From: a virus
Lineage: Duplodnaviria; Heunggongvirae; Uroviricota; Caudoviricetes
Virus record (IMG/VR): IMGVR_UViG_3300032322_001781
DNA length: 64,000 nucleotides
Reading direction: 5' to 3' (one strand)
Part shown: piece by piece, positions 38,162 through 63,651 of the stretch
Numbering within the stretch: position 1 is the first letter of the stretch
How the letters are laid out: every line of letters begins with the position of its first letter
The notes under the pieces: model-generated
Database searches by the model: none
What the model saw: the letters and a program-made list of their open reading frames with translations, nothing else
What the model was told of the DNA's origin: nothing
Program-made: the position numbers and the translations under genes

Positions 38162-38226
38162 TACTTGACAAATTAAAAAATAATTAGTACCTTTGCATAA
38201 CTTTTAGAAAAAACAACATATTTATT
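38162..38226 (+). promoter_or_regulatory. tRNA-operon promoter, copy 1
   Basis: TTGACA (38165) ... TACCTTTG (38188) followed by TATTTAT; near-identical copies at about 56451, 59517 and 63425. Confidence 0.8.
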
Positions 38227-38240
38227 TAAAAATAAAAACA

Positions 38241-38342
38241 ATGAGAAACATTAATATACATATAAATTCGATTAGCATGTGGAGACGTAATAGTAATCCA
38301 TTTGAGTCGGCTATGTCTGTAAGTTTCTTTGATGACATCTAA
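38241..38342 (+). CDS. Attenuator leader peptide L1, MRNINIHINSISMWRRNSNPFESAMSVSFFDDI
   Basis: Codons 2-19 encode only R, N, I, H, S, M, W; antiterminator segment TTTGAGTCGG at 38301-38310. Confidence 0.85.
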   Translation: MRNINIHINSISMWRRNSNPFESAMSVSFFDDI

Positions 38343-38365
38343 AATCAAAATAAACAATAAAGAAG

Positions 38366-38401
38366 AACCCGATTCAGAATAAAATCTAAATCGGGTTTTT
38401 T
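38366..38401 (+). terminator. Attenuator terminator T1
   Basis: AACCCGATTCAG/CTAAATCGGGTT stem plus T-run. Confidence 0.85.
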
Positions 38402-38412
38402 CATTTTAAAAA

Positions 38413-38583
38413 ATGGCTGAACAAAGACTCAAAAAACTTGGAATCGTAAAAGCGACTAAATTAACCAAGAATTTTGATGAGCTTTATGAGGTTTACAAAA
38501 AGAAAGCTGAAAAAGCTGGATATATTGGTGAACTTAAGTTCATCAACGAACATGGTAGAGTGTTTATCTACGTAGTTCTTTGA
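38413..38583 (+). CDS. Small hypothetical protein (56 aa), first gene after T1
   Basis: MAEQRLKKLG...; not in the ORF track. Confidence 0.5.
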   Translation: MAEQRLKKLGIVKATKLTKNFDELYEVYKKKAEKAGYIGELKFINEHGRVFIYVVL

Positions 38584-38599
38584 CATGGTGGTTAAATAC

Positions 38600-38681
38600 A
38601 CAGTGGCATTCATTGGCGAGATAAGCAGTCTCCAAAACTGTGAGCATTACGCTCTTGTGAGTTCAACTCTCACTCACTGTG
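38600..38681 (+). tRNA. tRNA-Trp(CCA), long variable arm
   Basis: Cloverleaf, ctCCAaa loop, G73. Confidence 0.85.
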
Positions 38682-38695
38682 CAAATTATTTTAAT

Positions 38696-38786
38696 GGAAG
38701 CTCCCATGTGGCGTGGTACGTGGTCTTGAAAACCATGAGGTCGGTAACCAATCCGATGTGGCCGAGTTCGACTCTCCCAGTTTCCG
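38696..38786 (+). tRNA. tRNA-Ser(TGA)
   Basis: ctTGAaa loop, long variable arm, G73. Confidence 0.85.
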
Positions 38787-38802
38787 CTTTTAAACTTTAT
38801 AT

Positions 38803-38876
38803 GGGTCAGTTAGCTCAATTGGCAGAGCAATAGATTGTGATTCTATGGGTTATGGGTTCGAGTCCCATACTGGCCC
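38803..38876 (+). tRNA. tRNA-His(GTG)
   Basis: G-1, C73, ttGTGat loop. Confidence 0.9.
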
Positions 38877-38885
38877 CTTAAATAT

Positions 38886-38961
38886 GGTGTTTGAAGCTTT
38901 AATGGTTAAGCGTTGGTCTGTGAATCCAAAGAAGACGGCTCGGTACCGTCCTTACACCCCA
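38886..38961 (+). tRNA. tRNA-His(GTG)
   Basis: ctGTGaa loop, encoded CCA, atypical CTCGGTA T-loop. Confidence 0.8.
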
Positions 38962-39131
38962 CTTTTTTACCGCCTTTAAACGATGGTTTGAACTCCATAG
39001 AGATGGATGCTAGTGAATATGATAATAAACTAGGGCGGTTGAGAGTTAGAATTTATTATAAAATAAAAAAAATACACATGAAAAAAGAATTTGATATGCT
39101 TTAGGACTGCTAAACAACAGTCATTTAAGCA

Positions 39132-39317
39132 ATGAGTAACGAAAAATCAAAAACAACAAATCGTTCTGTATATAATAAACTATATCAAAACGAATTATCT
39201 AAAAAATTTGGATTATGTCCAATATGTGGCCCACATTCTGGTTGTAATAGTCGATTTGGAAAAAAAGGACCATATAGAAATTGGAAAAATTATAGAAAAA
39301 CAAGGTGGAAACAATAG
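39132..39317 (+). CDS. Small basic protein with CPICGPHSGC
   Basis: 61 aa ORF within the tRNA cluster. Confidence 0.55.
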   Translation: MSNEKSKTTNRSVYNKLYQNELSKKFGLCPICGPHSGCNSRFGKKGPYRNWKNYRKTRWKQ

Positions 39318-39333
39318 GGTCTCCACCATTAAA

Positions 39334-39418
39334 CGTGAGGTGGTCTAGCGGTTTGGGGCACCAGTCTGATACACTGGAGAGGAAACTCTATAGGTGGGTT
39401 CGACTCCCACCCTCACGA
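39334..39418 (+). tRNA. tRNA-Ile(GAT), long variable arm
   Basis: ctGATac loop, CCAGT/ACTGG stem. Confidence 0.85.
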
Positions 39419-39427
39419 CTTTAAATT

Positions 39428-39502
39428 CTTGAGGTAATAGTCAATGGTGAGACTGGGAAGCTTATATCTTCGCACGTGTGGGTTCGAGTCCCACCTTCAA
39501 GA
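39428..39502 (+). tRNA. tRNA-Ile(TAT)
   Basis: ctTATat loop, CTTGAGG/CTTCAAG acceptor. Confidence 0.8.
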
Positions 39503-39524
39503 CTTGGAACTTTTTGTAAAATAT

Positions 39525-39597
39525 GGACTGTAAGCTGACAAGGTGTAGCGGTGGTTTGTTAAACCAAGGGTGGTTGGTTCGATTCCAACACAGTCCG
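39525..39597 (+). tRNA. tRNA-Asn(GTT)
   Basis: ttGTTaa loop, G73. Confidence 0.88.
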
Positions 39598-39661
39598 CAA
39601 CATTAATTTTTATTGTTAATAATTGGTTTTTTGTGTTAGAACCACATAAATAATTAAAAAT

Positions 39662-39767
39662 GGACTGGTAGCTCAGAGGCAGAGCAAACGGCTAGGTGTG
39701 ATAATTAGTTTCACACAAAAGAGTGTTAACCGTTAGGCCGAGATTTCAAAATTCTCTCAGTCCTCCA
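39662..39767 (+). tRNA. tRNA-Asn(GTT) with a 31-nt insertion in the anticodon loop
   Basis: AACGG-CT-[39694..39724]-GTT-AA-CCGTT; encoded CCA. Confidence 0.7.
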
Positions 39768-39775
39768 AAATAAAT

Positions 39776-39845
39776 TGCATGTGTTATTGGAAAACAACCA
39801 GCTCTCATAAGGCAGGTCAAGTGGGTTCGACCCCCATCCATGCGA
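39776..39845 (+). tRNA. tRNA-Met(CAT) (or lysidine-type Ile)
   Basis: ctCATaa loop; imperfect stems. Confidence 0.7.
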
Positions 39846-39850
39846 CAAAT

Positions 39851-39930
39851 GCAGACGTAACCGAGCTAAGCTACGAACTTAGTAACCGTAAATGGAGTTG
39901 TAAATGGGGGTTCGAGTCCCTCCGTCTGTA
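39851..39930 (+). tRNA. tRNA-Arg(ACG), D-arm missing, long variable region
   Basis: GCAGACG/CGTCTGT acceptor, CTAAG-ctACGaa-CTTAG arm, only 8 nt between acceptor and anticodon stems. Confidence 0.65.
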
Positions 39931-39937
39931 CTATAAT

Positions 39938-40008
39938 GGTTCCATCGTTCAACGGAAGGACAAGGGTCTTCTAAGCCCTTTATGTAGGTTCGAGTCCTAC
40001 TGGGACTA
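39938..40008 (+). tRNA. tRNA-Arg(TCT)
   Basis: Canonical cloverleaf, ctTCTaa loop. Confidence 0.9.
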
Positions 40009-40012
40009 CTAT

Positions 40013-40101
40013 GGAGAGCTAACTGGACAGGGTTCCAGACTTGTTTGCTAAACAATGGGTGCGTCTAAAAAGCGCATGGTTTTCGATTAACCAGTTCTCC
40101 G
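40013..40101 (+). tRNA. tRNA-Ser(GCT)
   Basis: ttGCTaa loop, long variable arm, G73. Confidence 0.85.
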
Positions 40102-40149
40102 CCCTTGACTTTTTTATTTTGGCTAATATTTATAGAAAATTTTTAGCCA

Positions 40150-40536
40150 ATGTTTATACCAAACCACCTACATTTAATAGTTAAGGGTACCTTTAAAAAC
40201 CCACCAACAGAAGTTGATGTTTTAAATAAATGGTTTATTGAGTTAGTTGAAAGAGTTTCAATGAAAGTTGTCGCTGGCCCAACTTCAGTTTATGTACATG
40301 AAGAAGGCAATGAAGGATTGACAGGAACTGTTACTTTGGCAACCAGCCATGCATCAATACATATATGGGAAAAATATGAACCATCAATGTTTCAGTTTGA
40401 TATATATTCATGTTCATGTTTTTCTGCTGAAGAGGTTTTGCACCATTTAAATAAATTTGATTTAATAAAGTGTGAATACATTCTAATAGATAGAAACGGA
40501 GATAAAATGGTAATCATTGAAGATGGCTCAAAATGA
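40150..40536 (+). CDS. speD: S-adenosylmethionine decarboxylase proenzyme-like protein
   Basis: HL...G, GLTGTVTLATSHASIHIW and FDIYSC motifs. Confidence 0.75.
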   Translation: MFIPNHLHLIVKGTFKNPPTEVDVLNKWFIELVERVSMKVVAGPTSVYVHEEGNEGLTGTVTLATSHASIHIWEKYEPSMFQFDIYSCSCFSAEEVLHHLNKFDLIKCEYILIDRNGDKMVIIEDGSK

Positions 40537-41966: not shown

Positions 41967-42896
41967 ATGAAAGATAAAATCAAAGAAATATTACGTGAAA
42001 ACGTAGATAAAAATATTTTGGGGGTTAGTGTTACAAGACCTAATCAAGAGCTTATTATTATGCGTGGTGTACCTGGAGCTGGAAAATCAACCAAAGCCAA
42101 ATCGCTTGTAGGTCAAGGAAAAATTCACTCGACTGATGACCTCATTCAAAAGTCTGGTGATTATCGTGAATTTTTTGCTAATATGATTGCTACAGGTGAT
42201 TTTAGTGCTTTAAGCAAAATGCATTCCCAAAACCTAAAAGACGCTATTGCCTCTATGAAATCTGGTGTTACACCAGTTATCGTAGATAACACCAACATTA
42301 AGCAAAACGAACCAAAAGCGTATGTTGTAGCGGCACTAGAAATGGGCTTTGCTGATAACAATATAAAGTTTGTTGACGTTGGTACAGCTGGGCTTGAAGC
42401 ACAACAATTAGTTGAAAGAAACACTCATGGTGTTCCATTAAATAAAATTGAAGCGATGATTGCAAGTCACACAGCACAAGGCCCCCTTACTCTTAAAAGT
42501 GTTTTGGAATCTAAGGATATGTATAATAAATCAAATGTATTATATTCTTGTGTTCTTCTAGATAAAGCTTCGCACAACAAATTAATTGACAGATTTGCCT
42601 TGGATATTCCTGATGGTTGGAAAACATTTGCTCATCACATGACAATAACAATGGGTGAGTTAAAGGATAAGACAGACATTGGCAAAGAAGTTATTTTGAA
42701 GGTAATAAAAGTTGGTTTGTCTGATATGGCAATGGCTGTACAAGTCGATGGGTATCCATCAAAAAATGTTATCCCCCATGTTACTATTGCGGTGAACCCA
42801 GAAGGTGGTAAACCAAAAGATTCTAATGACATTACCAAATGGGAAGATATTAAACCTTTTTATGTCACAGGTTTTGTAACCGAAATCACGAAGTAA
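41967..42896 (+). CDS. Polynucleotide-kinase-like P-loop fused to a 2H phosphoesterase domain
   Basis: GVPGAGKST, VDNTN and RNTHGVP; C-terminal HHMTI and PHVTI 2H motifs. Confidence 0.8.
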   Translation: MKDKIKEILRENVDKNILGVSVTRPNQELIIMRGVPGAGKSTKAKSLVGQGKIHSTDDLIQKSGDYREFFANMIATGDFSALSKMHSQNLKDAIASMKSGVTPVIVDNTNIKQNEPKAYVVAALEMGFADNNIKFVDVGTAGLEAQQLVERNTHGVPLNKIEAMIASHTAQGPLTLKSVLESKDMYNKSNVLYSCVLLDKASHNKLIDRFALDIPDGWKTFAHHMTITMGELKDKTDIGKEVILKVIKVGLSDMAMAVQVDGYPSKNVIPHVTIAVNPEGGKPKDSNDITKWEDIKPFYVTGFVTEITK

Positions 42897-43528
42897 TGAA
42901 AGTATCTGCACAAGTAGTATTGATTAACCAACAAGGGTTGGTATTGGGTGTGTCACGTAAAAATGACCATTATGATTTTGGTTTTATAGGTGGAAAAATG
43001 GAACCAGAAGATAATGGTGATGCGATGGTTACTGCAATTCGTGAAACACTTGAAGAGACTGGTCTTAATATTTCAAATTTGAGATTGATTTTAGCTATTC
43101 ATAAAGATGGTTATATGAGTTATACCTATTTAGCTGATTACGAAGGAGAAATCAACCATAATGAACCACATGTAGTGAAATGGTTGCCGATGGAAAGATT
43201 GGTTAATGGTAGTTTTGGAAAGTATAACAAATTGGTTTCTGAATCTTTGAAGGATATGGGTGTATCATTTAAGTATGACATATCCTTGGATGAAATTAGA
43301 GAAGAAATAAAGAACTATATCACATCTATTGGCTATAGGTATATATCTGTCAACAAATCTTATGATTGGTTAGGCAGATATATACTCGAAGTTAGATTTG
43401 GACATACGTTTGAAGAAATTTATGAAGAACTTGGGGATGAAGGATACCGAATTCAAGATAAATTAATAGAAATTGGTAAAGGATATGGATTAGATATTTC
43501 TTTTCCTAGTTATTATTTTTCAAAATAA
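42896..43528 (+). CDS. Nudix hydrolase
   Basis: GGKMEP...AIRETLEETG motif. Confidence 0.85.
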   Translation: MKVSAQVVLINQQGLVLGVSRKNDHYDFGFIGGKMEPEDNGDAMVTAIRETLEETGLNISNLRLILAIHKDGYMSYTYLADYEGEINHNEPHVVKWLPMERLVNGSFGKYNKLVSESLKDMGVSFKYDISLDEIREEIKNYITSIGYRYISVNKSYDWLGRYILEVRFGHTFEEIYEELGDEGYRIQDKLIEIGKGYGLDISFPSYYFSK

Positions 43529-43564
43529 CTTGCAACTTGTAAAAAATAGTGGTATCTTTGTAAA

Positions 43565-43873
43565 ATGAATGAAAAAAATAAAACAATGGAAAGAAGAATT
43601 GAGCTAAGCAATAAATTTATTGAGATGGGCCGTTCTTTAATCAAAGAGGGTAATGAAATAAATGATTACTCCATAACACAATCAGGTAATTTTCTTATTC
43701 TTATATCAGGTATTATCTTAGAAGAGAAGGATTCTGTTGAATTTGCGAATTTATGTGCTATGTTTTCAGCTAAAAAATTAATGGAAAACATGGGTGATTT
43801 TTGGTCTGATATCCCTAATGAAGAAATGATTAGAAAAATGTTAGGGTTGGATGATGAATCATTAGAAAATTAA
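43565..43873 (+). CDS. Hypothetical protein
   Basis: 102 aa ORF after a TAnnTTTG promoter. Confidence 0.55.
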   Translation: MNEKNKTMERRIELSNKFIEMGRSLIKEGNEINDYSITQSGNFLILISGIILEEKDSVEFANLCAMFSAKKLMENMGDFWSDIPNEEMIRKMLGLDDESLEN

Positions 43874-43876
43874 TTT

Positions 43877-44137
43877 ATGACTGAAGAAAAATTTAACCAA
43901 ATTAAAGAACTTAAAAACAAAATTGAAGGTAAAGAAGACAAATTAAGAGATATAGATTTGTTGATTCAAACCCCAAAACTTGTTTGTAAAATTTATGGGT
44001 CACCGAATAGGTCTCTTAGACAAGACCCTGAGTTTTATTTTTTTGAAGAAGATGAAATTATTAGACTTTTGAAACTTGGTAGAGAAAAAATTAATTCTGA
44101 GTTATCTGAGTTAAAAAAAACTTTTTCTGAATTATAA
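43877..44137 (+). CDS. Hypothetical protein
   Basis: 86 aa ORF. Confidence 0.55.
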   Translation: MTEEKFNQIKELKNKIEGKEDKLRDIDLLIQTPKLVCKIYGSPNRSLRQDPEFYFFEEDEIIRLLKLGREKINSELSELKKTFSEL

Positions 44138-44194
44138 GGTTTTTATTTTGAAAATTAAATATTTTTATTTACCTTTGTAGTATAAATAAAAATT

Positions 44195-45319
44195 ATGTTA
44201 CTAATACAAGAATTTATCATTAAAAATGGTTTAGAAAACGCTGTAAGTGAATTTAATCTTAAAATACGTGAGTACGAATCAAAAATTTTATTAAAATATG
44301 ACCAATTATCACCTCCATCAATGATGGGGTTAAAAGAAGTTCAAGAATGTCGTGGCCTTATTTTGGAAAAAAAATCTTGGCGTGTCATGTCTTTGGCTTT
44401 TAAAAAATTCTTTAACTCTGAAGAATCCAATGCACATAAGATTGATTGGAATTCTGCACATGTTTTAGAAAAACTGGATGGTACTTGCATTCAAGTTTAT
44501 TATGATTGGAATGACATGACATGGTATGCTGGAACTACAGGCACTGCTGATGGTGAAGGTGAAGTTAATAATAAAACTGGCACGACATTCAATCAATTAT
44601 TTTGGAAGACTGTTAAAGAAAAATATAACTTAGACACATCAAAGTTTAATGCTGGTTACACTTATGTATTTGAATTAACAACACCTTATAATATCGTTGT
44701 TAAACCTCATGGTGAGTCATCAGCCACTTTGTTGACTGTTAGGAATCTAGAAACATTGAAAGAATTGTCTTTCGATGAATTGACAAGGGTTTCTGAAGAA
44801 TTGGGTATCCCACGTGTTAAGGCATACGACTTGAACGTTAAAAATGTTGGAACCTTGTTGAAGACATTTGACAACATGGTATGGTATGACGAAGGTTATG
44901 TTGTGGTAGATGCTAAACACAACCGAGTAAAAATAAAAAACCCAGCTTATGTTGCGGTTCACCATCTTAAAGGTAAAACGGCTGAACACAATATTTTGAC
45001 GATAGTAAAGACCAATGAAATAGAAGAATTCGCTGCTACCTTCCCAGACCGTAAGGATGAGTTGGTTAAGTTGAAGGCTAACTATGATGCGTTGATTGCT
45101 AAGTTGGATTCTGTTTGGGTTGAGTTACAAGTATTTCGTCCAAAGAATATCACACCACAAGAAAAGAAGAAGTATGCAATAGCGGTGTTTGAAGTGTGTG
45201 GTAAACGTGATGTCAAGAATTTTACTGGCCTATACTTCGGTTTGGTTGATGGTAAAGTAACATCTGTTGAAGACTATATGTTAAAATATGATGATAAAGC
45301 CTTATATAAAATGTTATAA
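44195..45319 (+). CDS. RNA ligase, T4 Rnl1-like
   Basis: ECRGLIL, FKKFFN, EKLDG, FEL, EGYVV and RVKIK motifs. Confidence 0.88.
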   Translation: MLLIQEFIIKNGLENAVSEFNLKIREYESKILLKYDQLSPPSMMGLKEVQECRGLILEKKSWRVMSLAFKKFFNSEESNAHKIDWNSAHVLEKLDGTCIQVYYDWNDMTWYAGTTGTADGEGEVNNKTGTTFNQLFWKTVKEKYNLDTSKFNAGYTYVFELTTPYNIVVKPHGESSATLLTVRNLETLKELSFDELTRVSEELGIPRVKAYDLNVKNVGTLLKTFDNMVWYDEGYVVVDAKHNRVKIKNPAYVAVHHLKGKTAEHNILTIVKTNEIEEFAATFPDRKDELVKLKANYDALIAKLDSVWVELQVFRPKNITPQEKKKYAIAVFEVCGKRDVKNFTGLYFGLVDGKVTSVEDYMLKYDDKALYKML

Positions 45320-45365
45320 AGTTTATCTTTTTTAACATCTCTATTAAACTAATAAATAAAGCAGT

Positions 45366-45791
45366 ATGGGATACAACACAGGAAATATTAATAAGATAAC
45401 AAAAGAAGAATTAGATAACTATCTAGTTTCTATTGGTGGTTTAGAGAGAAGTTGGCGTAAAGATTTGGGGCCTATATTTAATACTAATTTTTTTGCGGTA
45501 GATGAAGGTTGGTATGGATTGATTAAGAGTTTAATCGAAGAATTGATTGAAGCTGGGTGGGATAAAAAATTAGTACAAGTTAAAGAAAAATTTGGCGGAC
45601 TTCATTTTTACATTGAAAATAGTGATGAGTTATCATATGCTATAATTTCAAAGTACGAAAAATTATCTTATAAAGTTTGTGAGAAGTGTGGTTCTGAAGG
45701 TGTTTTAAGAAAAGGTGCTTGGTTAAAAACTCTTTGTGATGAACATTCTGATGGAAGAGAAGAAATGATTTTTAACGAGCCACCAATTTAA
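45366..45791 (+). CDS. Hypothetical protein
   Basis: QVKEKFGGLHFY...CEKCG...TLCDEH motif. Confidence 0.6.
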   Translation: MGYNTGNINKITKEELDNYLVSIGGLERSWRKDLGPIFNTNFFAVDEGWYGLIKSLIEELIEAGWDKKLVQVKEKFGGLHFYIENSDELSYAIISKYEKLSYKVCEKCGSEGVLRKGAWLKTLCDEHSDGREEMIFNEPPI

Positions 45792-45846
45792 ATTTGGTAA
45801 TTTCAAAAAAAATTACTACCTTTGCATTAACAAAACAAAAAACGAT

Positions 45847-55688: not shown

Positions 55689-56432
55689 TTAACTTTCTGA
55701 AATCGCTAAATTTATTAGTTTTATCAGTTGAATCCCTTTAGAACTAATAAAAACATCCTCATGATTATTAAAATTTGCAATAACATTGATGGGACTGTTA
55801 TCAATTCTAATTAATTCATCTTCATGATAAGCTTTTGATAAACGTTTAAAATATTTTGATTTAAAAATAAATTCATTTGGGTTGGTAGTATATTCCAACA
55901 CAAACGCCATTCTCAAATCCTCTTCAATCATTTCTCTTAACAAAATTTTACGTGACTCAGGTGTTTTATAATCATTAAAATCTATATTTGCCGCTACTTC
56001 TGTTAAAATTTCATGATTACCAAAAATTGATGCTGAATCAATATTGGTAGACCAACTTTGAATTTTACTTTTTGCCTTATAAACATAAGGAAAAGGTTTA
56101 TACATATTTATTGGTATTTTTTTATTTATAAAATAACTTGCTGGTAGAGTTAAACCACGATATACTTTAGTTTTTTCTGGTGTTAGAACTTCAGGATATT
56201 GTGCCATACATCCTTTTAATGTTTTAATAGCGTTTATAAAATCTGGTGTTATTTCTTGACCATACATATTATCAGTAAAATCTTCAATGTCTCTTACGTA
56301 TTGGTTTTCCAATCCAGTGTTTTTTTCGACCCCACCCAATTCATCACCAAATAATTCAGAACCAAACTTCCTAACACAAGCCTCTATTTCAGACTCATTT
56401 ATAAGTGTTTTATAAACTTCTAAAATTTTCAT
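55689..56432 (-). CDS. Hypothetical protein with LINE leader (ART-like motifs possible)
   Basis: VYRG and QSWST motifs; minus-strand TATTTATA upstream. Confidence 0.5.
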   Translation of the reverse strand: MKILEVYKTLINESEIEACVRKFGSELFGDELGGVEKNTGLENQYVRDIEDFTDNMYGQEITPDFINAIKTLKGCMAQYPEVLTPEKTKVYRGLTLPASYFINKKIPINMYKPFPYVYKAKSKIQSWSTNIDSASIFGNHEILTEVAANIDFNDYKTPESRKILLREMIEEDLRMAFVLEYTTNPNEFIFKSKYFKRLSKAYHEDELIRIDNSPINVIANFNNHEDVFISSKGIQLIKLINLAISES

Positions 56433-56450
56433 TTGTTTTTTTTATATAAA

Positions 56451-56512
56451 TACTTGACAAATTGAAAAATAATTACTACCTTTGCATAACTTTTAAAAAT
56501 AACTATATATTT
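56451..56512 (+). promoter_or_regulatory. tRNA-operon promoter, copy 2
   Basis: TTGACA at 56454, TACCTTTG at 56477. Confidence 0.8.
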
Positions 56513-56521
56513 AATAGTAAT

Positions 56522-56596
56522 ATGAAAAACTTAAATTTAAACTTAGTCCTTGTGTTATGTTTGCTAGTGGCAGACTGGATGGGCTATGTTTGTTAA
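56522..56596 (+). CDS. Attenuator leader peptide L2, MKNLNLNLVLVLCLLVADWMGYVC
   Basis: 11 of codons 2-16 are L, V or C; antiterminator segment GGATGGGCT at 56577-56585. Confidence 0.85.
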   Translation: MKNLNLNLVLVLCLLVADWMGYVC

Positions 56597-56620
56597 GTAA
56601 GTAATAAACTGAAATAACCG

Positions 56621-56650
56621 AAGCCCATCCGTAAAAAGATGGGCTTTTTG
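56621..56650 (+). terminator. Attenuator terminator T2
   Basis: AAGCCCATC/GATGGGCTT stem plus T-run. Confidence 0.88.
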
Positions 56651-56659
56651 CTTTTATAT

Positions 56660-56746
56660 GCTCATATACCAAAGTGGTTGAATGGGGCGGTCTGCAAAAC
56701 CGCTGGATTGAAAAATCCCACGTAGGTTCGAATCCTACTATGAGCT
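56660..56746 (+). tRNA. tRNA-Cys(GCA), long variable arm
   Basis: ctGCAaa loop, U73. Confidence 0.88.
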
Positions 56747-56764
56747 CACAAACAAATAATAAAA

Positions 56765-57088
56765 ATGAATAAAAACGAAGTAACAAAAGAATTGTATAAA
56801 TCAAAAGCAATGGCTAAGTTTAGTCATTATATTGGTGGTAATTTATATTACATGGTTGAAGTTTTTGGTGAATTGTATCAGTTCCCAATCTCAACAATTG
56901 AGCCCAGACAAATTATGATAGGTGGTATGGATGAAATGGATGGTCCAGCAGATGCTGAATATATTGAAACTATAAAGCTTTCTGAAGATTTAGGTACAAC
57001 TAGGTTTGAAGGTGAAGTTAGAGGTTCAGAATTGAATAGATGGATTGGTAAAGCGATAGATACTAATAATTTTATAAAAATAAATTGA
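56765..57088 (+). CDS. Hypothetical protein
   Basis: 107 aa ORF in the tRNA cluster. Confidence 0.6.
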   Translation: MNKNEVTKELYKSKAMAKFSHYIGGNLYYMVEVFGELYQFPISTIEPRQIMIGGMDEMDGPADAEYIETIKLSEDLGTTRFEGEVRGSELNRWIGKAIDTNNFIKIN

Positions 57089-57089
57089 A

Positions 57090-57311
57090 ATGAAGGAAAT
57101 TAGAAAAGTTGGTATTGAAATAGAGATTGAGGTTCAACCAATAGAAGAATATTTTAAAGAAAATGGGATTGAATCTAATGGTGAGCCATCTAGTAAATTG
57201 GCTTGTTATATTCCATGTATAAATACATCGTTTTCAACAAAACCAGAAAATTTTGAATCTATGGTAAAATCAATATTTTATAGTTTTTTTCAAGAAAAAC
57301 TTAAAAAATGA
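57090..57311 (+). CDS. Hypothetical protein
   Basis: 73 aa ORF. Confidence 0.5.
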   Translation: MKEIRKVGIEIEIEVQPIEEYFKENGIESNGEPSSKLACYIPCINTSFSTKPENFESMVKSIFYSFFQEKLKK

Positions 57312-57316
57312 AATAT

Positions 57317-57388
57317 GGGGGTTGCGTATAATGGTAGTATGCATGGTTTACATCCATGAAGGAAACGGTTCGATTCCGTTAGCCCCTA
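57317..57388 (+). tRNA. tRNA-Val(TAC)
   Basis: CATGG-ttTACat-CCATG arm. Confidence 0.9.
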
Positions 57389-57394
57389 CAACAG

Positions 57395-57465
57395 TGTTCT
57401 AGCATATGATGGTAGTATACTTCTTTGACATGGAAGGTGAAGCAGTTCGATTCTGCTTAGAACAA
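57395..57465 (+). tRNA. tRNA-Val(GAC)
   Basis: CTTCT-ttGACat-GGAAG arm. Confidence 0.85.
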
Positions 57466-57525
57466 CAAAAATAAATTTGGTAATATTAAAAATATATATT
57501 ACCTTTGTTTCGTTCTTTAATATAT

Positions 57526-57611
57526 GGGTGGGTGGCGTAACTGGTAGCCGCACTAGACTTAAAATCTAGGGTCCCGAAAGGGGCGTATGGGTTCGAATCC
57601 CATCCCGCCTA
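57526..57611 (+). tRNA. tRNA-Leu(TAA)
   Basis: Canonical class II tRNA, ctTAAaa loop. Confidence 0.92.
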
Positions 57612-57688
57612 CGCTAATTAAGCTAGTTTATGAACAGCCTATGAGGTGAGATGCTCTCATTATAAGACAGCTCGGAAAGACGAGCAAT

Positions 57689-57794
57689 GGTGAGGTGGTG
57701 AAATTGGTAGACGCAACCTATTAAGGGGTCGGAGGTAATAGCAAAACGTAAGATACGGAATAACTCCATGCAAGTTCAAATCTTGTCCTCACCA
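57689..57794 (+). tRNA. tRNA-Leu-like gene, irregular anticodon loop (TAA or AAG), variable arm of about 40 nt
   Basis: Leu-type D-arm GGTGAAATTGGTAGACGC, intact acceptor and T-arm. Confidence 0.6.
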
Positions 57795-57870
57795 CCTTGT
57801 GCTCAGTAAAGCCTCTTGCGAAAGCAACGTAACTGATGGAAGTATCTCTAATGAGTACGCCTTCCAAAAT

Positions 57871-57968
57871 GGCCAGATGGTGGAATTGGTAGACACAGCG
57901 TAAGTAGGTATTACAGTAAACCGAACTCGCTTCTGTATTTATGTAGGTTCGAGTCCTACTCTGGGCCA
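57871..57968 (+). tRNA. tRNA-Leu-like gene with elongated anticodon arm (CAG at tip?)
   Basis: Leu-type D-arm; AGCG/CGCT stem encloses 27 nt. Confidence 0.55.
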
Positions 57969-58051
57969 CAAAATCTTGCTTTGCAACTGATGAGTGAAAG
58001 ACCTCAAAATTATGCAATGGTAGTTGACTGCTTGGAATAGACAAGCACCAT

Positions 58052-58135
58052 GGGGAAATGATGGAATTGGCAGACATAATCGCCTTAGAAGCGATGGCTG
58101 AAATATGCGTAAGAGTTCGAGTCTCTTTTTCCCTA
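58052..58135 (+). tRNA. tRNA-Leu(TAG)
   Basis: ATCGC-ctTAGaa-GCGAT arm. Confidence 0.9.
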
Positions 58136-58184
58136 CAAATCTTGAGAGTAATTAACTCAAGACTGAACGATTCGAAGCGTTCGA

Positions 58185-58274
58185 TTGGTCATAGTGTAGT
58201 GGGCACACTGGCCCTAGACTCCATATAGAGGGTCGGGGCTGGAGGTTGGTGGTTCGAATCCTACCTTGACTAAC
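58185..58274 (+). tRNA. tRNA-like gene with extended anticodon arm, identity unclear
   Basis: TTGGTCA/TGACTAA acceptor, GCCCT/GGGGC stem enclosing an extra GAC/GTC hairpin, T-loop TTCGAAT. Confidence 0.5.
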
Positions 58275-58278
58275 TAAA

Positions 58279-58363
58279 AAGATGGTTACAGCAAATAACT
58301 TAGGATAAAAATTTGTCTCGAAAACGAATCTAGTGGTTCAAATCCACAAATATACCATCTTGA
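58279..58363 (+). ncRNA. tRNA-mimic RNA of the helix + CAGCAA family
   Basis: AAGATGGT/ACCATCTT helix, TACAGCAA, an anticodon-like arm (ctCGAaa) and T-arm GTGG-TTCAAAT-CCAC. Confidence 0.6.
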
Positions 58364-58367
58364 TTTT

Positions 58368-58449
58368 GGCCCTATGGTGGAACTGGTAGACACGCTTGAC
58401 TCAAAATCAAGTGCCGCAAGGCGTAACGGTTCGAGTCCGTTTATCCCTA
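58368..58449 (+). tRNA. tRNA-Leu(CAA) with mismatched acceptor stem
   Basis: ctCAAaa loop; GGCCCTA vs TATCCCT gives three mismatches. Confidence 0.65.
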
Positions 58450-58454
58450 CAAAT

Positions 58455-58544
58455 GGTTCAGTGGTGCAACTGGTTGAGACACAGCAGATTTAAAATCTGC
58501 TACCCAAGAGGTAAACGTTGTGGGTTCGAATCCCACTTGGACTA
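58455..58544 (+). tRNA. tRNA-Leu(TAA)
   Basis: GCAGA-ttTAAaa-TCTGC arm. Confidence 0.88.
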
Positions 58545-58612
58545 CTTAAGTTCTTTGAAATATTTTTACATGTAGTGTGTACTTTTCACGCGTCTACCTT
58601 ATATTTATAAGT

Positions 58613-59047
58613 ATGAGAACAGATATAATTGAAAGAAAAACAGAAATACTTAATTGGATAAGTGAAAATAAATCTAAAGCTTATATGATTAAAGAATTAG
58701 GTTGTAAACAAGATACACTAAATCAATATTTAAAATTAATGAATATTGATTATAACGGTAATCAAGCTGGTGTTGGTTTACTAAAAAGTAAAGTAGAATT
58801 AGAAGATATAATAACTAACAAAGTTAAGTTCAGTCGTCATCAATTAAAGAAAAGACTATTACATTTAGGTATACTTGAATATAAATGTTGTTGGTGTGAT
58901 AATATTGGTGAATGGAATGGTAAACCGATGTCGTTAGAGTTAGACCACATTAATGGTATCAATGATGATAATCGATTAGAGAATCTTAGAATCCTTTGCC
59001 CAAATTGTCATAGTCAAACACCTACATATAAAAATAAAAATAGATAA
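58613..59047 (+). mobile_element. HNH homing endonuclease
   Basis: CCWC...LELDHING...N...NLRILCPNCH motif; TATTTAT promoter at about 58601. Confidence 0.85.
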
Positions 59048-59048
59048 T

Positions 59049-59135
59049 ACCCTTATAAGCAAACTGGTAAAGCTGGTGGTCTTAGAAGCCATGGCAAACA
59101 TTGATACGTTCTCGGTTCGAGTCCCACTATCCTCA
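59049..59135 (+). pseudogene. Degenerate tRNA-Leu(TAG)
   Basis: GTGGT-ctTAGaa-GCCAT arm, with unpaired acceptor and weak T-stem. Confidence 0.6.
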
Positions 59136-59248
59136 CAAGAAATATTTAAAGCTGATATTGCAATATCATCTTTTTTTATGTATATTTGTGTTATGATAAA
59201 ATTGAAAATTTTATCCATTTTTTATGTATATTTATATGTATATGTGAA

Positions 59249-59455
59249 ATGCTTAAAATAAATAAAATATCAGAATTGATAATTGGTCATGATTATTATT
59301 ATCAAAAAAATAATATCACTGGTATTCTTATTTTTATTAACTTTTCAAATAATTTAGGTTCGTTTAAAATTAAACAATTAAATAGATTAATAGATTTTGA
59401 TATCCTTTGTTTATCAGAAGAATCAATACTAAATCATATTTATAAAAAAGTTTAA
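59249..59455 (+). CDS. Hypothetical protein
   Basis: Likely start MLKINK. Confidence 0.4.
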   Translation: MLKINKISELIIGHDYYYQKNNITGILIFINFSNNLGSFKIKQLNRLIDFDILCLSEESILNHIYKKV

Positions 59456-59516
59456 AATAAATTTGGTAATGTTAAAATTAATACATACCTTTGTCCTATC
59501 AAATTAAAAACAAAAA

Positions 59517-59582
59517 TACTTGACAATTTAAAATTAATTAGTACCTTTGCATAACTTTTAAAAACAACAACATATTTATATT
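59517..59582 (+). promoter_or_regulatory. tRNA-operon promoter, copy 3
   Basis: TTGACA at 59520, TACCTTTG at 59542, then TATTTAT. Confidence 0.8.
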
Positions 59583-59595
59583 AAAAATAAAAACA

Positions 59596-59685
59596 ATGAG
59601 AACTTTTAACAACATATTTGATTTTGCAGCGTTTGCAGCCGAGGAGGATAGACTCTTAGGTAGGTCAGTTATTGTCAAAAGTTAA
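59596..59685 (+). CDS. Attenuator leader peptide L3, MRTFNNIFDFAAFAAEEDRLLGRSVIVKS
   Basis: 12 of codons 2-18 are F, D, A or E; antiterminator segment GGTCAG at 59663-59668. Confidence 0.85.
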   Translation: MRTFNNIFDFAAFAAEEDRLLGRSVIVKS

Positions 59686-59708
59686 CATAAAAAGTTAAAA
59701 CATGATAG

Positions 59709-59738
59709 AAGCCTGACCGTAAAAAGTCAGGCTTTTTT
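59709..59738 (+). terminator. Attenuator terminator T3
   Basis: AAGCCTGAC/GTCAGGCTT stem plus T-run. Confidence 0.88.
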
Positions 59739-59745
59739 CGTTTAT

Positions 59746-59818
59746 GGGGGTATAGCAAAGATGGTCTATGCGGAGGACTGAAAATCCTTAGATGTTGGCT
59801 CGGTACCAACTGCCCTCA
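59746..59818 (+). tRNA. tRNA-Phe(GAA)
   Basis: GAGGA-ctGAAaa-TCCTT arm; CTCGGTA T-loop. Confidence 0.85.
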
Positions 59819-59907
59819 CAGAATAGTTATTTGACGTATTGGCGATTGAAATAGAATTTAAAAAATGTTATTCCATGTCTTTTAATGTTAATATAACGGT
59901 ATGATTT

Positions 59908-59991
59908 GGTCCATAATACAAAGGGGTGAGTGGCTGCTCTTTCAAGGCAGATGTAGAAATACTAGAGAGGGTTCGATTCCCTTGTGGACTA
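59908..59991 (+). tRNA. tRNA-Glu(TTC), long variable arm
   Basis: CTGCT-ctTTCaa-GGCAG arm. Confidence 0.75.
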
Positions 59992-60001
59992 CAATATAAA
60001 T

Positions 60002-60087
60002 GTCGCATTAGCCTAACAGGTTAGGGCACCAGCCTTTCAAGCTGGAAGTCGAAAGACTGTGAGAGGGTTCGAGTCCCTCATGCGATA
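60002..60087 (+). tRNA. tRNA-Glu(TTC), long variable arm
   Basis: CCAGC-ctTTCaa-GCTGG arm; AGTC-GAAA-GACT variable arm. Confidence 0.88.
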
Positions 60088-60150
60088 CCTTGACTTTTTT
60101 TGTACTTTTTCTATAAAGAAAGAAGAACAATTTGGAAAGACGGATAATAT

Positions 60151-60226
60151 GGCTGATAGGTCAAACGGTTAAGATATCTCCTTGTCACGGAGTATGGAGC
60201 GAGTTCAACTCTCGTATCAGCCGCCA
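60151..60226 (+). tRNA. tRNA-Asp(GTC)
   Basis: ttGTCac loop, G73, encoded CCA. Confidence 0.9.
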
Positions 60227-60256
60227 TAATAGACAATCTGGAAAGACAGATAAAAA

Positions 60257-60331
60257 CGAGCATTAGGCCCCTTGGTGGGGAACAAGATTGTCACTCTTGT
60301 AAAATTAACGGGTCGCAACCGTTATGTTCGG
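60257..60331 (+). tRNA. tRNA-Asp(GTC)
   Basis: CAAGA-ttGTCac-TCTTG arm; atypical T-loop. Confidence 0.75.
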
Positions 60332-60333
60332 CA

Positions 60334-60437
60334 AAACTAAATACCCTTATTGGGCAAGCTGGATTGGGTCACTAGCATTCTCGTTCGAGTCGAGCTTTGT
60401 GGGCCAGCTAGGAGAAATGAAGACCTATTTAGTTTTT
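60334..60437 (+). ncRNA. Candidate permuted tRNA-mimic RNA
   Basis: AAAACTAAATA/TATTTAGTTTT closing helix with an internal CTCG-TTCGAGT-CGAG T-arm. Confidence 0.45.
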
Positions 60438-60439
60438 AT

Positions 60440-60513
60440 GGGTCATTGGTGAAGCTGGCTATCACACATGTCTTGCAAACATGAGTCTCGGATTCGAGGT
60501 CCGAATGTATCCA
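60440..60513 (+). tRNA. tRNA-Ala(TGC)
   Basis: CATGT-ctTGCaa-ACATG arm; irregular acceptor and T-loop. Confidence 0.75.
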
Positions 60514-60579
60514 CAATAGAGTTATGGTGTACACAGAAAAACTCTATTCGTCAATCCAATCGGAAGGTTGGTGCGATGA

Positions 60580-60651
60580 AGTCATGAAGTATTTATGGTA
60601 AGTATTCCACACGGCCTGTGGGGGTTATTGGTTCGAATCCAGTCATGACTG
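60580..60651 (+). tRNA. tRNA-Ala(GGC)-like gene
   Basis: AGTCATG/CATGACT acceptor, CCAC-acGGCct-GTGG arm, TTCGAAT T-loop. Confidence 0.6.
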
Positions 60652-60914
60652 CAAAAACCCTAAAATTTTTTATTTTATACTTGCACGATATTAAAATGTT
60701 TAGTAGCTTTGCATTATTAAACAAACGTTCTGATTTTTTTTAGTGATTAAAGGGCTGTCCATGGCCCACGTAATAAAATACGTATGAACTACAGTTCATG
60801 TAAACATATGACAAATTAGCCAATTGTTAGTAGCAATATGTTAAAAAACAGAGACCAATGGATTCTAATTTGAATGGTTAGATAGGTAGTTAGAGCCGAA
60901 AAATCTAATAAATG

Positions 60915-60986
60915 GTGACGTAGCTCAGTTGGTAGAGCAAAGGACTGAAAATCCTTGTGTCGGTGGTTCGATTCCACCCGTCACCA
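60915..60986 (+). tRNA. tRNA-Phe(GAA)
   Basis: Canonical cloverleaf. Confidence 0.95.
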
Positions 60987-61113
60987 CGATGTGTCAACAC
61001 GTGTGGTGAATGTGTTAAAATGATGGATAACATACCCGAATAATCAATGAGACCCCATCAAGTAGGAAAGACTGCGACTAAACCTACTTAGCTTTTGTAA
61101 GGTAAAAGCAAAT

Positions 61114-61235
61114 AGGGAGGTGGCCAAATTGGTAAAGGCGGCAGTAAGCAAAAAGATTAATCTGTTAAGATTAAGTTCAGCAACCAAAACGCAATGGAAA
61201 ACTGCTATTTGTGGGTTCGAATCCTACCCTCCCTA
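61114..61235 (+). tRNA. tRNA-like gene with a 55-nt anticodon loop containing the helix + TTCAGCAA motif
   Basis: AGGGAGG/CCTCCCT acceptor; GCAGT/ACTGC stem encloses TTAATCT/AGATTAA-GTTCAGCAA. Confidence 0.65.
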
Positions 61236-61432
61236 CAATTATAAAAAGGTATAAAATATAAGGCTAAACTTCATTATTTTTCATTAAAAAAAATGTTAAT
61301 AAAAAACTGATAATCAATAAAATAGGTTCGTATTTTATTAATAAAATTGCTTGACTTTTAATAAAAATATATTATATTTGTTTATAAAAAAAATTATAAT
61401 AACAATAATAAAAAACAAATAAAATAAAACAA

Positions 61433-62068
61433 ATGGCTGGAAAAACAACCACAACAAAAAAAGCAAGTGCGTCAACTGAAATCGTATTAGGTCAAGCCGC
61501 ACAACAAATTTCTAAAGCGGTAAGCGAATTGAATGCTGCTACAGAAACTGTAAACAAATTAGCAACACAAGCTGAAGACTTGACTCTTCAAGTTGCAAAC
61601 AAAGAAGCTCAGATTTCTGAATTAGATGTTCAGTACGCTGAAAAAGCTCGTCAAGCTGAAGTTGATTTCAATTTGAACGTTAAAGCTAACTCTCAACGTG
61701 TAGTAAACGAAATTTTGAGAGAAGGTGGAATGGAATCTATCAGCTCTGCTGAATTGAAAGCATTGCGTCAAGAATTGGCTGATACCAAAGCTGGTGCTGA
61801 AGCTGAAACCAAGAAGCAAGTTGCTATTGTGTCTTCAACTCTTAAGGCTCAATTCGACAATGATTTACGTTTTATCCAATCTGAAAACAAAGCTATCGCT
61901 GCTGAGAATGCTTCTAAAATCGGTGTATTAGCTGAAAAGAACAAGTTCCTTGAAGAACAAGTTACCAAGTTGTACACTCAATTGGATTCTGAACGTCAAG
62001 CTGGTATAGAAAGGGCTAAAGCTGGTTCTATCGGAAATATCACGGTTGGTGATACTTCTCGTAAGTAA
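61433..62068 (+). CDS. Coiled-coil protein
   Basis: 211 aa, A/E/K/Q-rich, well-adapted codon usage. Confidence 0.7.
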   Translation: MAGKTTTTKKASASTEIVLGQAAQQISKAVSELNAATETVNKLATQAEDLTLQVANKEAQISELDVQYAEKARQAEVDFNLNVKANSQRVVNEILREGGMESISSAELKALRQELADTKAGAEAETKKQVAIVSSTLKAQFDNDLRFIQSENKAIAAENASKIGVLAEKNKFLEEQVTKLYTQLDSERQAGIERAKAGSIGNITVGDTSRK

Positions 62069-62083
62069 TCCAAAAAACAATAA

Positions 62084-62290
62084 GCTATGTGAGGAATTGC
62101 ATAGCTCATTGCAAGGTAAAAGATTACTTCATAAGAACAAACTCGTGTAGCGTTAGGGTGGCTCCCTTTCCCACATTTGGGATATGACCAAAAAGAGCTG
62201 TGGCTGACCACGGGCATCCTTTATACAGGGGGCGAAATAACGCAAACGGTTTCTAGAGCCTAGGTAAATTCCCACGAGTCCCTGTTCCTT
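62084..62290 (+). ncRNA. Candidate multi-stem ncRNA
   Basis: GC-rich intergenic island; ACTCGTG/CACGAGT and GCGTTA/TAACGC long-range helices plus several hairpins. Confidence 0.45.
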
Positions 62291-62590
62291 TTTATCTCCA
62301 CAAATATTTTTTATAGAAAAATTTGTAAATCCCAAATATTATTCGTACCTTTGTATTCATTAATAATAAAACTTTCTAAAGCTATGGGGTTAGCTTGGAC
62401 TGAATACGGAGATAAACATAGAGATGTTTTTCACGATATTAAATAATTATTGTTAAAATCCTAAAAAATACTAGGTTAACTTGACAGTTTATAAAAATTA
62501 AGTATATTTGTGTGGTTCTATATATTTATAAAAAATAAAATCCTTCAAAGTTATTGGTTGGGTTAAAAATTAAATCAAATTAAATGGATA

Positions 62591-63013
62591 GTGGTGAGTG
62601 TAGTAAACAGGAAGACGCTGGGGACAGTATGTCTAGCGATAGCAACCTTCCTAAACCCTTTTGGGTTCGATATTTTGGTTTACAAACTAATGTCGTTAAC
62701 AAACGATTATTGGAGCACAATGCTTATATTATATGTATTTTCGGCCCTGTTCTTTGGAGTATCTTTTATTTCATTTAAATTAGGTGAAAAGATAATAGCA
62801 AATGCAACGATGACTGTTGGTTTATTTTTGAATCCGTTAGGTTATGATTTTGTTGTTTTTGGTATAAATAAATTAACAAACGATTATTGGATTACAATGA
62901 GTATTATGTATATAATGGCTACGTTATTTTTTATTGGTTTTATGGTTTTTTATAAAATAAATCCGATAAAAATAATTAATATAAAAACTAAAAAATATGG
63001 ACAAAAATTTTAA
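62591..63013 (+). CDS. Four-TM membrane protein with internal duplication
   Basis: Two copies of FLNP(F/L)G(F/Y)D...LTNDYW.TM. Confidence 0.65.
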   Translation: MVSVVNRKTLGTVCLAIATFLNPFGFDILVYKLMSLTNDYWSTMLILYVFSALFFGVSFISFKLGEKIIANATMTVGLFLNPLGYDFVVFGINKLTNDYWITMSIMYIMATLFFIGFMVFYKINPIKIINIKTKKYGQKF

Positions 63014-63407
63014 CGACTTATTTGACGAATTTTTTTTTAAAAAAAATTTATCCGATAGCGATTTCTACAAAAAAATAAACATCAATATTAAACAATTGTT
63101 TGACCTTCTTAAAAATGTTAAAACAAATGAAATTGATGGAAAAACAGATATGTCATTGGGCGAACCAGATAGTGTTGAATCATATTCAGATGGTTTTTTC
63201 TTTTTTGAAAAAAAAGTATGGCACACCCCAAATGGTGATATTATAAAAATAACAGCTTCAGATAATACAGATAATTTACATGAGCCAGAAAAAACGTTAC
63301 AAGAACAATTGGATGAAGCTATAAATAATGAAAACTACGAGAAAGCCGCACAGATTCGTGACCTTATGAATCCACCAAAGAAAAAAAAGTCCACCAAAAA
63401 AAAATAA
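62997..63407 (+). CDS. UVR (UvrB/UvrC-motif) domain protein
   Basis: LDEAINNENYEKAAQIRD motif. Confidence 0.7.
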   Translation: MDKNFNDLFDEFFFKKNLSDSDFYKKININIKQLFDLLKNVKTNEIDGKTDMSLGEPDSVESYSDGFFFFEKKVWHTPNGDIIKITASDNTDNLHEPEKTLQEQLDEAINNENYEKAAQIRDLMNPPKKKKSTKKK

Positions 63408-63424
63408 AAAATATTTTGCAAAAA

Positions 63425-63490
63425 ACTTGACAAATTAAAAATTAATTAGTACCTTTGCATAACTTTTAGAAACAACAACATATTTATATA
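63425..63490 (+). promoter_or_regulatory. tRNA-operon promoter, copy 4
   Basis: TTGACA at 63427, TACCTTTG at 63450, then TATTTAT. Confidence 0.8.
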
Positions 63491-63502
63491 ACAATAAAAG
63501 CA

Positions 63503-63595
63503 ATGAAAACAACAACGACATATACAGGGAAACAGTATCCGCAAGGCAAACAATTGCCTAACGGACTAGTAATGTCGTTATATAATCTAAGCTAA
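63503..63595 (+). CDS. Attenuator leader peptide L4, MKTTTTYTGKQYPQGKQLPNGLVMSLYNLS
   Basis: Codons 2-17 encode only K, T, Y, G, Q, P; antiterminator segment GGACTAG at 63563-63569. Confidence 0.85.
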   Translation: MKTTTTYTGKQYPQGKQLPNGLVMSLYNLS

Positions 63596-63618
63596 CAAAA
63601 CTTAGATATTTTAAAGAC

Positions 63619-63651
63619 AACCCCTAGTCCTCAAAAAACTAGGGGTTTTTT
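63619..63651 (+). terminator. Attenuator terminator T4
   Basis: AACCCCTAGT/ACTAGGGGTT stem plus T-run. Confidence 0.88.

Follow-up and report, generated by a model that had tools for sequence, protein, structure and literature searches.

In classical leader-peptide attenuators, such as trpL, hisL, leuL, thrL, pheL and the multivalent ilvL of ilvGMEDA, a short open reading frame (ORF) rich in regulatory codons is followed by an intrinsic terminator. Mutually exclusive RNA pairings (1:2, 2:3 and 3:4) distinguish between no translation, ribosome stalling and full translation of the leader, and ilvL and thrL each sense several amino acids through one leader. We identified four units with this anatomy in a 64,000-nucleotide (nt) stretch of viral DNA (IMG/VR record IMGVR_UViG_3300032322_001781, Caudoviricetes), the whole of which we refer to as the window. 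Each unit heads one cluster of transfer RNA (tRNA) genes on the plus strand. The arrangement and conservation of these sequences make it likely that each unit is a ribosome-mediated (leader-peptide) transcription attenuator of a tRNA operon, giving demand-driven tRNA synthesis.

Classical attenuators control biosynthesis, transport or charging genes and provide feedback on amino-acid supply, whereas the phage units precede tRNA genes (and a few small ORFs) and would provide feedback on tRNA supply. The phage-encoded leaders also sample up to seven amino acids, with each isoacceptor class represented once or a few times instead of by runs of a single codon. Attenuation of synthetase genes, the closest use found in print, likewise adjusts the supply of charged tRNA. 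In Escherichia coli, a leader-peptide attenuator lies before the synthetase genes pheST. Leader-peptide attenuators are also found upstream of leuS, trpS, alaS and thrS of Streptomyces lividans (PMC8079986). Synthetase-gene attenuators control the charging enzyme of one amino acid, whereas the phage units would control the tRNAs themselves, many at once. T-box riboswitches resemble the phage units in being cis-acting leaders with alternative terminator and antiterminator structures that use a codon to sense the state of one particular tRNA. T-boxes bind uncharged tRNA directly and without a ribosome, whereas the phage units contain an ORF with a frame-specific signature of translation. None of the curated Rfam leader families (His, Trp, Thr, Leu, Phe and others) matches the window, in which only tRNA and transfer-messenger RNA (tmRNA) pass the gathering score.

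The four units (38165-38401, 56454-56649, 59520-59738 and 63427-63651, all on the plus strand) share a common cassette order: promoter, A-rich untranslated region of 31-40 nt, ATG-started ORF, spacer, hairpin rich in guanine and cytosine (GC) with a run of T5-T6, and tRNA cluster. The promoters (38165-38195, 56454-56484, 59520-59549 and 63427-63457) are near-identical in all four units and follow the pattern TTGACA-N19-TACCTTTGCATAACTTTT, with a Bacteroidota-type -7 box; in unit 1, TTGACA is followed after 19 nt by TACCTTTG. Zero chance matches are expected for the 42-nt promoter consensus. Leader ORFs begin 31-40 nt 3' of the -7 box and span 38241-38342 (33 codons), 56522-56596 (24 codons), 59596-59685 (29 codons) and 63503-63595 (30 codons). 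Terminators T1 (38366-38401, -11.4 kcal/mol and T6), T2 (56620-56649), T3 (59707-59738) and T4 (63620-63651) each combine a hairpin of -11.2 to -11.9 kcal/mol with a T5-T6 run. An earlier note on this DNA had described this common layout, including near-identical promoter blocks, ORFs of 24-33 codons and intrinsic terminators, and all four loci are present as described. The spacers it reported at 23, 24, 23 and 23 nt are also present, with lengths of 25, 26, 25 and 25 nt from the stop codon to the first paired base under our hairpin definition, a boundary difference of 1-2 nt.

The terminators stand out from their surroundings. T2 and T3 are the top two terminator-like sites at 56000-64000 in a terminator scan, which does not pick up T1 and T4 because their loops are too long for it. 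On the coding strand of both tRNA regions, strong hairpins followed by a T-run are limited to T1-T4 plus one element behind tRNA-Met. The first tRNA lies 8-13 nt past the T-run in units 2 and 3 (11 nt from T2 to tRNA-Cys and 8 nt from T3 to tRNA-Phe). This leaves no room for a second promoter, so polymerase reaches these tRNAs only through the terminator. In unit 1, the distance is about 200 nt and includes a 56-codon ORF.

The amino-acid composition of each leader matches the tRNAs encoded behind it. Leader 1 uses only Arg, Asn, Ile, His, Ser, Met and Trp in codons 2-19, and tRNA cluster 1 (38600-40103) encodes Trp, Ser(tga), His (two copies), Ile(gat), Ile(tat), Asn, Met, a weak call (39851-39931), Arg(tct) and Ser(gct), with small ORFs in between. 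Leader 2 is rich in Leu, Val and Cys and precedes tRNAs for Cys, Val(tac), Val(gac), Leu(taa) (two copies) and Leu(tag), along with two Rfam-only tRNA matches and small ORFs (cluster 2, 56660-58545). Leader 3 is rich in Phe, Asp, Ala and Glu and precedes two tRNAs each for Phe, Glu and Asp, Ala(tgc), Ala(ggc) and one Rfam-only match (cluster 3, 59746-61236). Leader 4 is rich in Thr, Tyr, Gly, Lys, Gln and Pro. Cluster 4 (63715-63990) begins with Pro, Pro and Gln and continues past the window end, and we therefore took its tRNA set from the related metagenome contig L038. The leader 4 of this contig is one residue off that of the window and precedes tRNAs for Pro, Pro, Gln, Tyr, Thr, Lys, Gly and Gly, which confirms the prediction that leader 4 makes for the tRNAs past the window end. 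The amino-acid sets of the four clusters are disjoint, and together they comprise all 20 amino acids.

We defined the sensor as codons 2-19 in every leader, without tuning. Sensor residues belong to the amino-acid set of their own cluster at 18/18, 11/18, 12/18 and 17/18 positions in leaders 1-4, as compared with at most 5/18 for any other cluster. This bears out the earlier claim that the amino acids of the downstream tRNAs dominate the leader codons. Random 18-residue windows from the long ORFs of the phage reach the observed match in 0, 0, 9 and 0 of 12981 cases (leaders 1-4), and among 372 short ORFs of the window essentially only the leaders attain these values. The correspondence extends to anticodons: all of the called anticodon species (26/26) are sampled at least once by the codons of their own leader. 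Where a cluster encodes two isoacceptors (Ser, Ile, Leu, Val, Ala and Gly), both codon classes are present in the leader. CGT in leader 1 is the sole sensor codon without a called reader, and relatives have Arg(acg) at the place of the weak tRNA call at 39851-39931.

We identified this design in 35 distinct units, belonging to four leader families, in pattern scans of IMG/VR and metagenome contigs. The order and sequence of the sensor residues drift among relatives, while their composition remains within the set of the family. The match is specific to the reading frame: across 34 distinct leaders, it amounts to 81% in frame, 24% at +1 and 16% at +2. Among length-matched family members, 31/67 single-base codon variants are synonymous (about 20% expected) and 35/67 fall at third positions. 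This synonymous bias suggests that selection acts on the translated product.

An independent phage lineage contains units of the same kind. The DNA ligase of the window phage is 50% identical to that of the cultured Cellulophaga phage phi4:1, which has 23 clustered tRNAs divided by three leader-terminator units that are non-homologous to those of the window. In the phi4:1 genome (NC_021788), these units occupy 87065-87133, 87989-88108 and 89771-89869. Codons 4-14 of phi4:1 leader A encode Q R L H L Q E L E Q P and precede tRNAs for Pro, Glu, Gln, His, Leu(tag), Leu(taa) and Arg(acg). Leader B, annotated as gp075, is rich in Lys, Ile, Val, Thr, Gly, Asp, Ala and Arg and precedes tRNAs for Ala, Lys, Ile, Gly, Met, Asp, Thr, Val, Arg(tct) and Met. 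Leader C is rich in Asn, Tyr, Cys, Ser, Trp and Phe and precedes tRNAs for Tyr, Ser, Ser, Asn, Trp and Phe. The tRNA groupings of phi4:1 are unlike those of the window, and its leaders follow the phi4:1 groupings. The tie of leader composition to downstream tRNA identity that the earlier note had proposed to look for is therefore present in this phage. Arg codons track the anticodon of the cluster, with CGT in leader A (Arg(acg)) and AGA in leader B (Arg(tct)). Each phi4:1 leader pairs best with its own terminator arm.

Each window leader also contains a strand (segment 2) that is complementary to the 5' arm of its own terminator. These strands are located at 38301-38310 (10 base pairs (bp), including two G-U pairs, with 38369-38378), 56576-56585 (9-10 bp with 56622-56631; segment 1 at 56544-56549), 59663-59668 (6 bp with 59713-59718) and 63563-63569 (7 bp with 63624-63630). 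The earlier note had placed pairings of 10, 9, 6 and 7 bp at codons of about 19-25, in close agreement. When transcripts are cut just 5' of the terminator 3' arm, the minimum-energy fold pairs leader codons 18-25 with the terminator 5' arm in all four leaders. Across units, pairing is stronger with the own terminator arm than with other arms (mean -13.2 vs -9.4 kcal/mol, p below 5e-5). A reversed-arm control retains a small effect of 0.7 kcal/mol (p 0.03), as compared with the real effect of 3.8 kcal/mol, and part of the pairing signal thus reflects G-rich versus C-rich composition. Permutation within families gives p 0.0008 for family 4 and p about 0.05 for families 1 and 2.

Conservation of these pairings is family-specific. 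Family 4 shows concerted changes in the leader strand and in the two arms of the terminator, with a core of CTAG in the window, CTGG/CCAG in relatives L035 and L044 and TCGG/CCGA in L103. In family 2, 96.6% of cells in the antiterminator helix are paired, as compared with 25-60% when the helix is slid. RNAalifold recovers three elements for this family: the terminator, a sensor-antiterminator (1:2) helix and an inner hairpin that includes a compensatory pair. The anatomy of the units, the conserved and frame-dependent codon-anticodon match and the alternative pairings together establish that the feature is real.

We modelled the effect of translation using a ribosome footprint of -15 to +12 nt around the A-site codon. 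The U-tract was left out of the model because, at the moment of decision, it is still part of the RNA-DNA hybrid. Across the 35 units, the terminator is favoured over the antiterminator by a mean of +7.1 kcal/mol in the absence of a ribosome. This advantage falls to a median of +0.9 kcal/mol (minimum -0.9) with a ribosome on codons 4-15 and rises to +9.2 kcal/mol with a ribosome on the last five codons. In this fold comparison, which the earlier note had proposed, the energy advantage of the terminator is thus lost when a ribosome occupies the sensor codons. Shuffling the sensor reduces the no-ribosome advantage to 2.7 kcal/mol, and the native value is higher in 35/35 units. In these folds, the native sensor region masks the antiterminator strand through 1:2 pairing when the leader is untranslated, and the different positions of the modelled ribosome yield the same three states as classical attenuation. 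Read-through would then probably depend on ribosome stalling.

Frame-specific matching, the synonymous lean, own-arm pairing and three-state folding support the attenuation logic of the trp, his, thr and ilv type that the earlier note had put forward, and all predictions of this model that we tested at the sequence level hold. Transcription would begin at the strong conserved promoter, and the first approximately 150 nt would carry the short ORF before polymerase meets the intrinsic terminator. If the leader were read quickly or no ribosome loaded, the ribosome would cover segment 2 or segment 1 would re-pair with it, and the terminator would form and stop transcription. If a matching aminoacyl-tRNA were scarce, the ribosome would wait at the sensor codons, leaving segment 2 free to pair with the terminator 5' arm and allowing read-through into the tRNA genes. 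The regulated product is the tRNA itself, and the loop would therefore act as negative feedback on decoding capacity for each codon class, with four channels jointly covering all 20 amino acids. Scarcity of the tRNA itself would be a more sensible signal than lack of amino acids because extra tRNA is of no help when an amino acid is lacking, though both would stall ribosomes. During infection, scarcity may arise from a codon-usage mismatch (the window phage has a GC content of 31%), early in infection, from starvation or through tRNA cleavage by anticodon nucleases.

Several observations weigh against such a mechanism. Leaders 2 and 3 begin with Lys, Asn, Thr and Ile codons, which lie outside the tRNA sets of their own clusters. 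The 6-bp antiterminator of family 3 is no better than chance pairings, as its within-family permutation is not significant. The family 2 helix has only one double compensatory change, and shuffles often equal its score for column-wise covariation, which is why we relied on the own-versus-other energies instead. Own-arm pairing, which bears on the antiterminator-terminator covariation that the earlier note had suggested looking for, holds in families 1, 2 and 4 and fails to reach significance in family 3. When the U-tract is included, equilibrium folds of leaders 1 and 3 retain the terminator at every ribosome position, and the best modelled state of leader 4 still favours the terminator by +0.8 kcal/mol. 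A ribosome stalled at sensor codons 16-19 would reach segment 2 with its footprint and would thereby promote termination. Protein-coding ORFs occur inside the tRNA clusters and would be co-regulated. Relative L005 retains leader 4 and the terminator with ORFs in place of the tRNAs behind them. Finally, public RNA runs contain no leader reads, and three aquatic RNA libraries give only tRNA-sized pieces, mostly from other organisms or relatives.

Some of these points would fit an arrangement in which the cassette of promoter, ORF and terminator is a small gene of its own or acts as a constitutive, leaky terminator, with a fixed fraction of read-through and no sensing of tRNA. Peptide-level conservation in the C-terminal half of the leaders, L005 and the persistent terminators of leaders 1 and 3 are in line with this arrangement. 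It leaves unexplained why the leader-tRNA match is restricted to the frame of the leader ORF in seven non-homologous units from two phage lineages. It also does not account for a strand complementary to the own terminator arm or for the masking of this strand by the sensor region. We consider this explanation unlikely.

A second explanation, which we judge to be improbable to a similar degree, is that leader translation controls read-through but reports general translation capacity or amino-acid starvation, for example by tuning all tRNA synthesis to the state of the host. The same stall would result from any slowing of elongation at leader codons, also when an amino acid is lacking, and one promoter type is common to the four units. 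A general sensor would not need to split 20 amino acids into four matched channels that sample each anticodon, and the different groupings of phi4:1, which its leaders follow, argue against it as well.

It is very unlikely that read-through is set by a non-ribosome factor, such as an antitermination protein of the phage or uncharged tRNA bound in a T-box-like manner, with the ORF being incidental. Phages commonly use antitermination factors, and a sigma-70-like protein (34885-35796) is encoded in the window together with many enzymes that handle RNA. Translation is indicated instead by the restriction of the codon signal to one frame and by the synonymous lean of the substitutions. A T-box needs a single specifier codon, not 11-18, and we rejected this reading because, at gathering score, the window contains no match to the T-box or to any other curated leader family and the signal lies in a frame-specific, probably translated ORF. 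Chance resemblance in a genome rich in adenine and thymine, where Asn, Ile and Lys are common, has a negligible probability and is rejected by the random-window counts and by recurrence in 35 units and in phi4:1.

The mechanism of the proposed attenuators is itself known from the trp, his, leu, thr and ilv leaders; what is probably new is that tRNA genes are the regulated targets. tRNA genes are usually treated as constitutive or growth-rate controlled. The earlier note knew of no attenuation of phage tRNA genes, and our full-text literature search found none for phage or bacterial tRNA genes; most subscription journals were outside its reach, and the result is absence of evidence only. The literature searched likewise describes no regulatory leader for phage tRNA arrays. 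Phages T4 and KVP40 served as controls from beyond the Bacteroidota phages. In phage T4, the 2.5 kilobases (kb) around the tRNA cluster contain neither a coding-strand hairpin with a T-run nor a matching short ORF. In phage KVP40, 14-15 amino acids are served within 3 kb, so any ORF matches and the comparison carries no information.

If the units act as attenuators, the tRNA gene set would be wired to a direct read-out of the decoding speed of its own codons. This would explain how tRNA-rich phages avoid over- or under-production of tRNA and would offer a simple physiological reason for the grouping of phage tRNAs into clusters. It would also link tRNA supply to neighbouring tRNA-repair genes. 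The cultured pair of Cellulophaga baltica and phi4:1, with its three units, makes the hypothesis directly testable, and the modular leaders could act as natural sensors of single-codon decoding capacity. We tentatively raise the further possibility that the attenuators are codon-resolved damage sensors: when host defences, such as anticodon nucleases and related systems, deplete or cut tRNAs, the matching leader might stall and switch on only the replacement operon, beside tRNA-repair enzymes. Such attenuators might then form a general, unrecognised layer of translation control in many Bacteroidota phages.

The gene content of the region identifies the setting as a tRNA supply and repair island of a large Bacteroidota phage. 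We assigned a Bacteroidota host because of the promoter type and the nearest cultured relatives. ARAGORN and Rfam call about 30 tRNA genes and one tmRNA on the plus strand, with tRNA groups at 38.6-40.1, 56.7-58.5 and 59.7-61.2 kb and a fourth group reaching from 63.7 kb to the end of the window. Genes for RNA repair and modification form an island in the same region (34885-36980 and 41967-50985), the second part of which lies between clusters 1 and 2. Its proteins comprise the sigma-70-like protein, a CCA-adding enzyme, a kinase with a tRNA-ligase-type phosphoesterase, a T4 Rnl1-like RNA ligase, a second RNA ligase, an ATP-dependent DNA ligase and a PARP-like protein. The juxtaposition of phage tRNAs with a CCA-adding enzyme, polynucleotide kinase/phosphoesterase and RNA ligases is similar to the T4 tRNA cluster (Pnkp and Rnl1) and to the translation sets of jumbo phages. 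An S-adenosylmethionine decarboxylase-like ORF (40150-40536) lies directly behind cluster 1, and an HNH endonuclease ORF (58577-59047) is placed within cluster 2.

Several tRNA calls are unusual. Four of the calls are weak (39851-39931, 57689-57794, 58368-58449 and 61114-61236). Three matches found only by Rfam or in the intron mode of ARAGORN (39662-39767, 57689-57794 and 61114-61236) need an insert of 22-48 nt in the anticodon loop to form a cloverleaf. tRNAs for Trp, Ile, Cys, Glu, Pro and Gln normally have no long extra arm. In the window, many tRNAs are over-long, at 83-95 nt for these amino acids (38600-38682, 39334-39419, 56660-56747, 60002-60089, 63796-63890 and 63903-63990).

The related contigs originate from lake and freshwater samples. 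CheckV assigns a completeness of 18-21% to relatives of 56-73 kb, which suggests a genome of roughly 300-400 kb. The nearest record to the window (G001) is without the promoters. BLAST comparison of cultured phages with leader cassette 4 and with cluster 1 gave tRNA-level matches only, with no leader match. In L005 (IMGVR_UViG_3300002307_000075, 5242-7400), the leader 4 homolog and intact terminator are followed by protein ORFs and a weak Pro-like tRNA remnant; this attenuator is either a relic or has been co-opted by other genes. Relatives L001, L003, L005, L007, L019 and L024 carry a small GGGG-N3-4-CCC hairpin between the promoter and the leader ATG, which is missing from all four window units.

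Additional conserved motifs accompany some units. A second promoter-like block, TTTGG..N..TACCTTTG, is conserved at 38092-38123 and 59462-59493, approximately 70 nt upstream of leader promoters 1 and 3, and units 1 and 3 may thus have tandem promoters. The motif TTGACAT(N)TTGG is conserved at 38575-38590 and 63692-63704, 15-25 nt 5' of the tRNA that opens cluster 1 or cluster 4, and recurs in relatives L005, L007, L024 and L072. It scores as a sigma-70-like -35 box, and the predicted start site would land within the tRNA.

The phage tmRNA (32869-33226) encodes an unusually long tag peptide of 25 residues, and the tag is identical in relative L009. Downstream of it lies a leader-type promoter (33730-33760), and the next 340 nt or so contain no ORF. 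The region at 33730-34100 matches no Rfam family and folds better than shuffled sequences (z -2.6). Its final approximately 75 nt form a cloverleaf-like element that abuts tRNA-Met(cat) at 34101, and we found the promoter variant at 33730-33760 again in four related contigs.

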